From Octopus sinensis (lineage: Eukaryota): 64,000 nt of DNA. The position numbers and the translations under genes are program-made. A model generated the notes under the pieces. It was not told where the DNA came from. It saw only the letters and a program-made list of their open reading frames with translations, and did not search any database. Shown here piece after piece: positions 14,609 to 41,949 of the stretch (the first letter of the stretch is position 1; every line of letters begins with the position of its first letter). The DNA lies in NCBI RefSeq assembly GCF_006345805.1, contig NC_043011.1, positions 64,988,464 to 65,052,463 of the forward strand, given 5' to 3'.

Positions 14609-14665
14609 TTAATAACATAATAAAGTAACGACAAATCCAAGAAGGAATATTCTTTGAATGGTCAT
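14609..14665 (-). CDS. Six-Cys family unit B, terminal exon (MTIQRIFLLGFVVTLLCY*), hydrophobic GPI-signal-like tail
   Basis: gttctcttttcag acceptor conserved at 47800 and 63021; phase 0 is the only frame giving a comparable open tail in all three copies and matches the upstream microexons. Confidence 0.72.
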   Translation of the reverse strand: MTIQRIFLLGFVVTLLCY

Positions 14666-15663
14666 CTGAAAAGAGAACAGAACACATTTTATCGACGTAT
14701 TATCAAAGTAATTCGATAAGAAATATACGAGACTGAAAATTCATAGGTCGACTATTAAGGGGTAATGCTAGAGTTGTGCATTCTTGCTTACCTCAATTTG
14801 AACCTACTTTATTTATTACTGAACTGATTATATTTTTACTGACATCAGACTGAAACACGAAACGCTAGATGAAACAAATAAACGACATTCTTTCGGAAGA
14901 AAATTCCCCGCCTTCCAAAAAATTTAAAAGTTAGACATTGGGAATTTGTTGCTATTTGAAAGGGGTGAGGTATGTTTGGGAAGGAGATTGAAGTGTTTCT
15001 TTGAGACGAATAGAACATTCCTAAAGAGGTTTGCTCAGTTGTTTTTTTTTCCCAGAGGATTAGAAAGAAAACCTTTGGAAAAAGTAAAATGAAGAAATTG
15101 TGTTGGGGTGGGAGAAAATTAAAATACTGGCGAGTGAAATCCTAAACTCCAGTATCAAAAACATAGGATTCGGAAGAAATAATGGAAACAAAAAAGGTGG
15201 GGAAACAAATGTCACGTCGGACATGCTAGAAACTACAGGTAAAGGACTGGATTTGTGGGAAAACTTCCTTTTAAGTTTATATCGAAATCAAGTTTTGAAA
15301 TACGCTAATCACAAACAGCATGGCCACAGCTCGTGAGCTGAAACTAGATAAAAATAAAAAAAATATATAAATATATATTAAAGAATATAAAACGGTCATT
15401 TCAATTTGATAAGGGCTATAATTTTGCGCGTGCAAGCACCAAGGAATGACATGTTCTACATGTTTTACCTAGAATGCGTGTGTATGCGCATGACAATGTG
15501 TGTGTGTGTGTGTATGCGAAAGGAAGTAAGTTTATGGTATTCTTTCTTTGAGGTAGGAAAGTTATCAACTCACTCATACGGTCGATCGAATAGGATCATA
15601 TTATTATTATTATTATTATTATTCAGTAGTTTTATTTTTATTATTATTATTATTCAGTTTTAT

Positions 15664-18189
15664 TTTTATAGCGTGGTTTCACTTCACTACCGAGCGCAGC
15701 TCTGTGTGTCTTGGGTATGTGCTGTGATTTGTTGTGATGCTCCGATGGTTATTGTATGGAAAGTGTTCTGCGTAGGATGTGTGCAGTGCCTAGAAGTGCA
15801 ATTTTCTGTATGTTATATGTGTTTGTAAGTCCTGGTGTTTTTGTTATGTATTTGTCTGAATATTTTTTTATCATGCCTAATGCACTTACTATGATAGGAA
15901 TTGTTTCTGTTTTCAGATTCCATATTCTAGTTACCTCTATTTCCAGGTCTTTGTATTTTGAAAGTTTCTTCATTTCTTTTAGAGACGCATTGTCATCTGC
16001 CGGTATTGATACATCAATTAGAAAGCATTTTTTTCTTCACGATCTCTGACAACTATATCTGGTCTGTTGGTCTTAATTTCTCTATCTGTGTGTATCGGCA
16101 TATCCCAGAGTATGGTTGCTTTCTCGTTTTCTGTGACCTTTTCTGGTGTGTGCCTATACCATCTTTTTTCTGTTGTTATTCCATAATGTTGGCATAGCTT
16201 CCAATGTATGTAGGTTCCAACTCTGTCATGTCTGTGAATATATTCCTTCTTAGCCAGGACTGGGCAGCCAGAGGTAATATGATTTATTGTTTCTTGTCCA
16301 TCTCCACATATTCTGCAGTTACTTGTAATATTTCTTTTCATTACATGTTTTTGGTAATTTCTGGTGGGAAGGCTTTGGTCTTGTGCTGCAATTAAAAATG
16401 CCTCTGTCTCTGCTTTGAGTCCTGAGCTTCTCAAAAATTGCTGGGATTTTTCTTTTGCGTTTAGTTTAGTCCAGTATTTACCATGAAGGGGCTTTCCTTG
16501 CCATCGTTTTAACATGGTTCGTTGCTGCTCTAGTTTTAGTTTGGATTTCATTTGTTTTATAGCTTTTGTTGTTTCTTCATCTCCTTCTTCATCTTCTTCA
16601 TATTTATAAGGTGGTATGATTTCTTGTTTGTATTTGTCATCTTCCTTAAATACTGAGAACAGTTTTTGTTTCGCTATTTGTAACAGTTTTCCTTCCTTCT
16701 GAAGTAGATATTTTTTGCAGTTCTATGGTGGTTATTTTATAGTTGTTTTGCAACTGTATAAAGCCCCTACCACCTTCCATACGTTGTATATATAGTTTTT
16801 TATGTCAGATTTTGGGTGATGCATCCTAGATCCTGTCATTATATTTCTTGATTTCCTATCTATTTTAGTCAGTTCATTTAGTGTCCAGTTAAGGATATTG
16901 TAACTGTAACTTATAACAGGGACAGCTAATGTGTTAATACCTATTACCTTGTTTTAGCATTGAGCTCTGTTTTTTTATTCTTTTTTTTACTTCTCTTTCA
17001 TTTATGTGTGTTGTGTCTTATCTAGTTCATGGATTCCTAAATATTTGTAAGTTTGGTTTGGTCTAATTCTTTTATATCATTGGTTTTATCTAGTGTGATG
17101 TTGTTAGTCTTAACTAGTTTTCCTCTTTTCAGGGTTACTTTGGCGCATTTTTCTAATCCAAATTTCATATCTATTTCTTAGGTAAATCGATGAACTGTCT
17201 TTAACAGTTTTTCCAGCTGTTTGTCATTTGCAGCGTATAGTTTTAGGTCATCCATATATAAAAGGTGGTTGATCGTTTTGCCGTAACATTTATATCCGCA
17301 TCCAGTTCTATTTAGCATATGAGATAGAGGTGACAGTGCCAAGCAGAAAAGGAGTGGATAGAGCATGTCTTCCTGGAATATACCTCTTCTAATGGGGATG
17401 TCTTTGGTTTTCATGAGTCCCTCTTTTGTTTGGAGCTGTAGCACTGTTTGTCATTTATTCTTAGAGTGCCCAATGAATTTTATAATTGCTGGTGCTACTT
17501 TTTTAATGACTAGTGTTTCGAGGATCCATGTGTGGGTGATGCTATCACATTCCTTTTTGTAGTCGATCCAGGCCTTACTGAGGCCTCTCTTCTTTCTGTG
17601 GCTGTCTTCAGTTATGGCTGTATTAATCATTAGTTGATCTTTACAGCCATATGAGCCCTTGCGGCATCCTTTCTGCTCTTCTGGAAAGAGGTTAATTTCG
17701 TCCAGGTGCTTGTTGAACCTTTGCGATATCACTGCAGTAAATGTCTTGTACATTGTAGGGAGACAGGTTATTGGTCTGCAGTTTTCTGGTTTTGCTGTCT
17801 CATTTGATTTGGGAATTAAGATGGTTTTTCCCTTTCGTGAGCCATTCAGGCATTGTCTCTGGCTCTGCTAGTATGTTGTTAAAGTTTTCAGCTTTTTGTG
17901 CATTCCTGTTATATATTTCAACCAGAAGTTGGGGATCTTGTCATGCCCAGGTGCCTTCCAGTTACTTAGTCTTTGCAGTGCCTGGGTGACCTCTTCAGTT
18001 GTTATGGAGGTCCAAAGCTGCTCAGATGCTGAGTTTGTTGTTTTAATACTCCTTTTTGTTTGGTTGTTCGTTCGCCGACCATATTTCTCTCCAGTATTCT
18101 TCCACTTCTGCCGTTGGTGCTGCAGTGATTTCTATTTTATTTTTGCCCAGATCTTGGTAGAACTTTTGGGGGTTGGAGTTGAACTTTTT
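15664..18189 (-). mobile_element. R4/Dong-like non-LTR retrotransposon (RT, CCHC and restriction-like endonuclease), frameshifted and 5'-truncated, flanked by (TAA)n
   Basis: HLLYMDDLKLY; CRICGDGQETINHITSGC; HRHD; RPDIVV; KLSKYKDL; (TTA)n at 15600-15655 and 18190-18292. Confidence 0.88.
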
Positions 18190-40479: not shown

Positions 40480-41510
40480 TCACGGCCGATCACACCAATG
40501 TTTTGCGTAGCGGAAGAATACGTTTATATGACTATTAGTTACCAATCTGATTATATAACCGTATGCTCATTAGCGTAGCTTAAATGGAATGAAATGTTGC
40601 GGCTGATCTCTATTGTAGGCAGTAAACCGACACACCTAGTTTTTTAAACTTCCTTACTCACATTCTTCCATTGCACATTCAACAGGCACACTGGAAGTCA
40701 ACACGACCATAGCCAAAACAGAGAAAAAAACACGCCAATGAATAAAATTATATAAGCCTGCACACACCTCAAAATGTATACACATAGAGAATTTCCGCAA
40801 GAACACCAAAGTGTAAGACGTAGACATTTCGTCTAAATAACTTCAAGGTAGCTCTTAACAACCTAGTGAAATTATCCCCTAATCGTCTTTTCACAGTAGC
40901 CACATAGGCTTGCGTCCATTCATCGCCAACAATAGAGAACAATCGCCATATTCGCACGCACGCACGCACCCGCTAACACGCGTGCCAAAGCATATTGCAA
41001 TAGGTCTTCCGCGTCTTGCAAAATCTTAATTTGCTTAACTCTTTCTCCTTCGCTCCTTGCTTCTTTTGACTGCTATTAACTCTCGACATTAAATCCCTGT
41101 ACACGGTGACCCCACACAGTCTAGGCATTCTTGCATTAAAACACTTGTTTGTCCTTCGGCCTGACACCCCAAAACATATTCCGAACTTGTACTCTCCACC
41201 AACTGCTTCTCCTTCGATGGAAGGTTTTACCACCATGTCCCGGCAACGATATGCGAACGAGAATGAGCCACAAATATGCGAAACAATGCTTTGACTATGT
41301 TCAGGCCCAGATATACTCAAATTTCACTGGCCCTACACAAGTGACATTGGGTCGTTATAATGACGATATTATCGGAGTGACCTCGCTCTCTCACGAACAG
41401 ATTGACTCCTTATTTTCATTTGTCCATTCCTTTCATCTTCCTCTCAAATTCTCCTGCTCTTTCTCTAGAACCCCCGTTGACTTTCTCTACATTTCTGTCA
41501 GGATACATAC
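40480..41510 (+). mobile_element. Penelope-like RT remnant
   Basis: RYNDDIIGV...FVHSFHLPLKFS...VDFL.ISV; partial inverted copy at about 40068-40130. Confidence 0.65.
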
Positions 41511-41909
41511 AAGAGCACCAACATTTCTATATATATATATATATATATATATATGTGTGTGTGTGTGTGTGTGTGTGTGTGTGTGTGTGTGTGTGCGTGT
41601 GTGTGGGTGTGTGTGTGTGGGTGTGTGTATGTGTGTGGGTGTGTGTGAATTTGTGTACGAGTGTGTTTGGAAAAGATGGGGAGATAAAGACTGATACACA
41701 TAGAGAAAACTCATATATATATATATATATATATATATATATATATATATATATATATATACACCATTATCTGTTTATAGTAAGAAAATTATTTAGTTAT
41801 ACAATGAATAAATTCTAACTAAAACCACATATCTAGCATTTAGACTGATTGTTGTACTATATAAACATTATTGCCTATTTTATTAGAATGGAAAATTTCA
41901 GATACTTAC

Positions 41910-41949
41910 CAGATACAAGAACTAAAAGGCACAAAAAGATCCTCATCAT
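41910..41949 (-). CDS. Six-Cys family unit B, signal-peptide exon 1 (MMRIFLCLLVLVS-G)
   Basis: ATG ATG ... TCT G|GTAAGT, phase 1; flanks homologous to the unit A exon-1 blocks; pairing with exon 2 across a 15.8-kb intron is inferred. Confidence 0.75.

Follow-up and report, generated by a model that had tools for sequence, protein, structure and literature searches.

The unit B gene

We analysed a window of 64,000 nucleotides (nt) of Octopus sinensis DNA (C15:64988464-65052463, where C15 is contig NC_043011.1 of a genome of 2.7 Gb) that contains unit B, a minus-strand gene for a small protein with six cysteines (Cys). When its six segments were spliced in silico, they gave 342 nt with an open frame encoding 113 amino acids and a stop. 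Exon 1 (41910-41949) contributes the ATG and a signal-peptide-like segment (residues 1-13, hydropathy peak 3.1), ends in a phase-1 donor, and has paralogous first exons in the neighbouring units A and D. Exon 2 (26030-26129, phase 1 to phase 2) carries Cys 1-3, spaced C-x7-C-x13-C, and exon 3 (22443-22527, phase 2 to phase 0) carries Cys 4-6, spaced C-x8-C-x9-C. Two micro-exons follow, one of 27 nt that encodes linker (exon 4, 21863-21889) and one of 33 nt (exon 5, 19289-19321); they are 67% identical, flanks included, and are tandem duplicates. The terminal coding exon (14609-14665) encodes a spacer, a hydrophobic tail of 13 residues and the stop.

Each of the five introns is GT-AG with a strong donor (GTAAGT in three, GTACGT in two), and TAG or CAG stands before every acceptor. 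Their phases are 1, 2, 0, 0 and 0, and their lengths of 15780, 3502, 553, 2541 and 4623 nt sum to 27 kb. The coding share of the span is thus 1.25%, close to the 1% given in the original prediction, and such a density is ordinary in an octopus genome of this size. Every exon has nearby paralogues with identical splice phases, and around the terminal exon some 270 nt are about 70% alike among paralogues. Between the tail of unit C and exon 2 of unit B, 41949-41910 was the sole family-type first exon found with nhmmer; other candidates there were microsatellite-like or had no family homology.

A profile search with exon 2 recovered the O. bimaculoides protein XP_052830372.1 (P0010), which aligns with the unit B product from end to end (29% identity, E 4e-19), with all six Cys in register and the same exon-sized blocks. 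The alignment has one gap, of 11 residues, and because this falls exactly at the second micro-exon, the exon chain is not a product of chance. Unit B is therefore an intact six-exon gene model and, as a single gene, ordinary in build. The join proposed in the original prediction was borne out in full, by canonical introns throughout, paralogous exons and the database match. The further proposal that unit B is the best candidate for a functional member stands in part: it is the only complete intact unit in the window, as unit A is frameshifted and unit C consists of just a tail, but unit D is also intact and, having an annotated counterpart, is better supported.

A tandem array on C15

A search of contiguous C15 DNA (1.464 Mb) with exon-2 hidden Markov models (HMMs) yielded 50 copies at E<0.01; in the reversed 1.464-Mb control, the family HMMs gave no match at that threshold. 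Fifteen further copies at E<0.01 lie on C15 back to 63.13 Mb, in stretches taken at weak genome-search matches or sampled every other 10 kb. The total for C15:63.13-65.94 Mb is 65 exon-2 copies or more; these counts are lower bounds because they exclude the greater part of 63.2-64.5 Mb and one half of 65.95-66.35 Mb. With four weaker copies (E 0.013-0.035) that extend to 66.24 Mb, the array exceeds 3 Mb. Among the unnamed gene arrays of an octopus genome, the one to which unit B leads is on the larger side.

We matched exons 2 and 3 manually into 34 pairs, a set from which copies that had stops or no clear partner were excluded; 33 of the 34 joined in frame and 32 kept six Cys. In one copy (window-relative 666548-666543), exon 2 is followed by a GC donor and Cys5 is missing. 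Broken copies lie near -153, -89, +392, +707, +730, +754 and +785 kb; those near -153, +392, +707, +730, +754 and +785 kb have stops in exon 2.

The domain is not always built as in the unit B subgroup. Exon 3 ends in phase 1 in the C15 copies farthest to the left, as against phase 0 in that subgroup, and the domain there is therefore a symmetric two-exon module. Two modules 6 kb apart (window-relative -38798 to -29951) correspond to A0A0L8GPX5, an O. bimaculoides protein with two domains, so this two-domain form may be real. On contig C6, between 28.0 and 28.7 Mb, the two-exon module repeats at least six times: exons 2 and 3 alternate every 1-3 kb in a run of six copies of exon 2 and five of exon 3 whose phases, 1-2-1, are compatible (module loci at 28729700-28742800 and at 28.04 and 28.64 Mb), and we consider it likely that these repeats form a multi-module gene on a second chromosome. 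The small contigs C13508, C13346, C9533 and C11551 carry exon-2 matches that score the same as C15 copies; these are likely to be alternative haplotypes or unplaced duplicates.

Divergence and selection

Paralogues differ with pairwise ratios of non-synonymous to synonymous divergence (dN/dS) of about 0.55 to 1.4 where defined. Six close pairs, when pooled, gave a proportion of non-synonymous differences (pN) of 0.086 and of synonymous differences (pS) of 0.076, with no change at any Cys (P ~0.001). In a site model of 20 copies of the unit B subgroup over 61 codons, a class with dN/dS>1 raised twice the log-likelihood difference (2dlnL) to 30.8 with F3x4 codon frequencies and to 27.1 with background frequencies, whereas 24 null simulations reached at most 2.4. 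The only sites under strong constraint in this model were the six Cys. The statistics thus suggest that some class of sites has dN/dS above 1 while the Cys stay fixed. In keeping with fast change in exons, exon 2 of units B and D is 48% identical while its intron flanks are 66% and 73% identical.

Unit B could itself be silent, or have died too recently for its frame to have decayed. Many copies in the array are broken, as unit A and the exon-2 stops illustrate, and no orthologous protein has come to light. Against this, dN between unit B and unit D, its nearest intact paralogue, is ~0.86, yet neither the six Cys nor the frame nor any of the ten canonical splice sites has been lost despite large insertions. 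We found no close duplicate of exon 3 of unit B elsewhere, and for this reason regard unit B as an old copy that stayed intact; that it is silent or dead strikes us as quite improbable.

Predicted product

The Cys of the unit B product lie at residues 24, 32, 46, 55, 64 and 74, and the only hydropathy peaks are those at residues 3-13 and 101-113. A triplet of serines encoded in exon 5, S89-S90-S91, 24 residues from the C-terminus, is a candidate omega site for a glycosylphosphatidylinositol (GPI) anchor and is followed by a polar spacer and the uncharged tail, an arrangement classic for a GPI signal. The hydrophobic tail recurs in units A-E and in five of the six database relatives (mean hydropathy 1.4-2.6, against 0.69 in P0007). 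Signal peptide and GPI signal were judged by hydropathy and a simple omega-site rule, and on this footing the product of unit B is likely to be GPI-anchored at the cell surface, as the PI-PLC checks of the original prediction implied.

An AlphaFold2 model of P0010, built from 37 alignment rows, had a predicted local distance difference test (pLDDT) score of 82-91 over residues 21-70, with helices at 20-32, 34-42, 47-56 and 63-72 of P0010 rather than of unit B itself; a single-sequence model of P0001 was poor (pLDDT 46). RGM and neuritin were absent among the best 50 fold matches of the model, which excludes neither. Sequence searches of the PDB gave 0, 1 and 1 matches at E<=10, none of them meaningful. 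Exons 2 and 3 were also considered as an internal repeat, since MAFFT stacked them, but hhalign gave this a probability of 1.2% and the idea was dropped.

Relation to known families

The closest proteins in the databases are uncharacterised, namely O. bimaculoides XP_052830372.1, XP_052830539.1 and XP_052830353.1, O. vulgaris CAI9735840.1 and CAI9735841.1, and UniRef A0A0L8GPX5. All share the six-Cys domain, the exon-sized blocks and the tail, and two RefSeq proteins besides XP_052830372.1 have the same layout as unit B. Some of their exons are 85-100% identical to the C15 region. None is an orthologue of unit B, the best reaching 29% identity, and XP_052830372.1 has one linker micro-exon where unit B has two. 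The O. vulgaris models string together two to four domains and may be fused neighbours. The exon-2 profile search also returned P0002, P0004, P0005 and P0009, which were set aside as unrelated repeat or receptor proteins, and Pfam matches of P0001 to NPR2 and cofilin were taken to be repeat artefacts. Because database searches yielded six family proteins as against at least 65 genomic copies, expression studies keyed to annotation would miss or merge copies.

Two familiar names can be set aside. A0A0L8GPX5 bears the name 'GDNF/GAS1', for which Pfam offers no support: PF02351 had no match in the relatives scanned. GFRalpha and GAS1 have about ten Cys per domain and unit B has six, and the scores of the family HMM against the genome's own GAS1-like domains were reached by 412/500 and 29/500 shuffles with fixed Cys. 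(A single-frame GAS1-like gene at C16:34.79 Mb served as a control, as did the RGM exon on contig C2.) Three-finger proteins of the Ly6/uPAR type are all-beta and carry 8-10 Cys, with CC-x4-CN as a terminal motif; unit B has six Cys and no such motif, and the model of its relative is helical. Membership of GAS1/GFRalpha and of Ly6 therefore fails on Cys number and on profile or fold.

Neuritin is the nearest named likeness. When neighbours of P0010 were ranked by a language model, two mollusc clusters without a name came first (0.90 and 0.88) and neuritin next (0.83). Both atlas searches placed neuritin first among the named feature neighbours, with scores (0.83 and 0.79) that lie below the bar of 0.9 and count as leads only. 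Unit B resembles it in being a small protein with, as judged by the hydropathy and omega-site criteria above, a signal-peptide-like N-terminus and a GPI-like tail. Neuritin presumably also carries six Cys, with a phase-2 intron immediately after the third, as in unit B. Its Cys spacers are presumably longer than those of the octopus family. Passages of PMC12715718 describe it as a small protein bearing a signal peptide and, C-terminally, a GPI signal, a layout also given in parts of PMC6740334 and PMC13070893.

We therefore considered whether the unit B family consists of true, divergent homologues of vertebrate neuritin (CPG15), and more distantly of the N-terminal domain of RGM, acting as neural growth or synapse ligands. 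The shared layout (in the passages of PMC12715718 just mentioned) and the atlas scores speak for the first part, and for the second RGM_N (PF06535) scored 37.9 bits summed over four repeats and 22 bits over two in multi-repeat relatives, and the C-x8-C-x7-C core of the genome's RGM, in a helical Cys module, resembles C-x8-C-x8-C in unit B. Yet RGM_N matched none of the three single-domain proteins. NRN1 (PF15056) had no match at E<=10 in any of the six full-length relatives or in 37 alignment rows, a scan that left out spliced unit B, and none in an exon-wise search of the genome. The family HMM scored 7 bits against the N-terminus of the genome's RGM, a score reached by 42/500 Cys-fixed shuffles, and an hhalign comparison of three relatives with that RGM gave 0.1%. 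That gene, on C2 (164.24 Mb), carries the GDPH cleavage motif and has the domain in one open frame; RGM further possesses a domain like the D domain of von Willebrand factor, and the 113-residue product of unit B has neither this domain nor the motif. Finally, neuritin (142 amino acids) is described as conserved, whereas the octopus family (105-114 amino acids) is hypervariable and numbers at least 65 copies. We consider homology unlikely on balance; neuritin and RGM are leads rather than memberships, although it is plausible, by analogy, that unit B works like a neuritin-type surface ligand. If the kinship were true, these families would extend into molluscs as a shuffled two-exon module.

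Possible role of unit B and its array

The interpretation that we somewhat favour is that unit B is an intact gene whose product would be a secretory, disulfide-stapled, helical and GPI-anchored surface ligand or co-receptor, with a partner specificity that varies across a fast-diversifying tandem array. The signal peptide would be cleaved after G14, the six Cys would form three disulfides within a small helical domain (as the P0010 model predicts), and the anchor would be attached near Ser89 with removal of the last 24 residues, leaving a mature protein of about 75 residues on a short linker encoded by the two duplicated micro-exons. This protein would bind an extracellular partner. The array would grow by whole-gene duplication and inversion and lose copies through stops and frameshifts, in a process of birth and death in which the Cys frame is kept and exposed helix positions change. 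Being small, quick to diversify and probably anchored at the surface, the family is an immediate candidate for a part in cell recognition, in sensing or in defence.

Several observations weigh against this interpretation. Recognition of an outside partner is the likely job of unit B, a role reached by analogy. We saw no transcript of the gene; contigs from three runs, presumed to be RNA, matched 18320-22870 in repeats only, with no exon joint among the matches listed, a result that is uninformative given exons of 27-85 nt and unidentified tissues. For 14100-14800, around the terminal exon, no RNA run was listed; a single run presumed to be RNA had 0.22 of the sequence words in common with that stretch, which is no evidence of transcription. 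Searches with exon 2 of unit B or with the P0010-anchored alignment, both of low recall, found no orthologous protein. The simple omega-site rule held in only two of the six database relatives, P0010 not among them, and fold searches with the model gave nothing at E<=0.001 or Z>=5 (best Z 4.8). As to selection, exon 3 of units B and D is 60% identical with flanks at 45% and 66%, and so does not lie below both flanks. The site model is our own grid implementation, with a fixed tree and without a control for recombination, and hidden pseudogenes or gene conversion could have inflated its signal. A pooled dN/dS close to 1 is, moreover, compatible with relaxed constraint.

The failure of the omega-site rule in four of six relatives also leaves room for products that are released, as defence peptides, pheromones or gland peptides, or held by a C-terminal membrane helix rather than GPI, positive selection then reflecting an arms race against microbes, against prey or between mates. 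Fixed Cys, hypervariable spacers and exons that diverge as fast as introns form a signature presumably typical of such effectors. Nevertheless, the hydrophobic tail is retained in five of six database relatives and in units A-E, and the 13-residue tail of unit B is short and lacks charged stop-transfer residues. We judge this alternative to be distinctly unlikely.

The surface-ligand interpretation can be carried to the whole array. In cephalopods, protocadherins, S-crystallins, reflectins and suckerins form multi-megabase tandem arrays, according to passages of PMC9068888, and the present array resembles the arrays treated there in its megabase scale, whole-gene duplication and broken copies. 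Those passages do not name the six-Cys family; they mention further unnamed squid arrays (Supplementary Table 4), and that supplement, which lies outside them, may bear on the array, of which we found no published description. Speculatively, and with little confidence, one might see an array of more than 3 Mb and about 100 positively selected GPI-anchored proteins, built on an ancestral neuritin/RGM-N module and complemented by multi-module forms on a second chromosome, as a combinatorial code of surface identity or recognition alongside the protocadherin arrays, with most copies missed or fused by automatic annotation because the exons are tiny.

Neighbouring units

Unit A (1507-11037, minus strand) is a paralogue with exons at 11037-11001, 7644-7545, 2152-2069 and 1533-1507 and a tail that falls outside the window. 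Its exon 3 lacks 1 nt at the very start, and its frame also contains a stop; the deletion marks either a pseudogene or an assembly error. A second family first-exon block lies about 0.9 kb upstream of its exon 1 (11918-12098, nhmmer E 1e-26), and its introns contain more retroelement remnants (8638-9396 and 2462-3274; a weak GIY-YIG match, E 5e-4).

Unit C (47751-49655, minus strand) is an orphan tail made up of a 27-nt micro-exon (49655-49629) and a terminal exon (47798-47751), with no exon 2 or 3 found upstream. Between it and unit D lies a near-intact long interspersed element (LINE; 56847-62175, minus strand), GC-rich relative to the window, with a 1147-residue open reading frame (ORF) for endonuclease and reverse transcriptase and a 418-residue zinc-knuckle ORF; its insertion may have broken unit C. 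The terminal exon of unit D occupies 62952-63020 (minus strand), and its other exons lie just past the window at window-relative 64.5-81.1 kb. Unit D is intact and encodes 107 amino acids, with N-G-S at a place like that of the omega site of unit B; it is the counterpart of the annotated XP_052830372.1 (exon 3, 66%).

Stray copies of exon 1 of unit B occur in inverted orientation at window-relative 162485-163076 and 211513-212102 (plus strand; C15 ~65.151 and ~65.200 Mb), 85% identical and with about 600 nt of flank. No plus-strand exon 2 was found within 98 kb downstream, and these appear to be orphan duplicates of promoter and first exon. Similar but weaker copies lie at 107, 130, 150, 184 and 232 kb.

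Repeats in the introns of unit B

The original prediction had the introns filled by Penelope, Dong-like, mariner and short interspersed element (SINE) insertions, and this picture stood in part. Intron 5 holds a LINE fragment of 2.6 kb (15600-18189, minus strand) with RVT_1 and zf-RVT matches, lying between TAT microsatellites and 87-91% identical to its copies; 'Dong-like' may be an apt label, since such elements sit in TAA repeats. Broken ORFs in intron 1 (26316-28572, plus strand) show reverse-transcriptase and GIY-YIG motifs by eye and have no Pfam match, and are presumably Penelope-like. SINE-like repeats lie in intron 2 (22570-23024, high copy, no strand assigned) and intron 4 (21482-21638). 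The mariner label was not upheld, as none of 25 ORFs scanned matched a transposase. Rfam had no match in the window. Long, repeat-filled introns are ordinary for a 2.7-Gb octopus genome. In the 1.46-Mb region, 43% of the unit B span has at least two other copies, a figure that includes paralogous intron sequence, and 20% has at least five. Intron 1 also contains nested inverted repeats without a coding match (32455-33649 and 34714-35980), 84-90% identical, of which a further copy lies near +649.5 kb.

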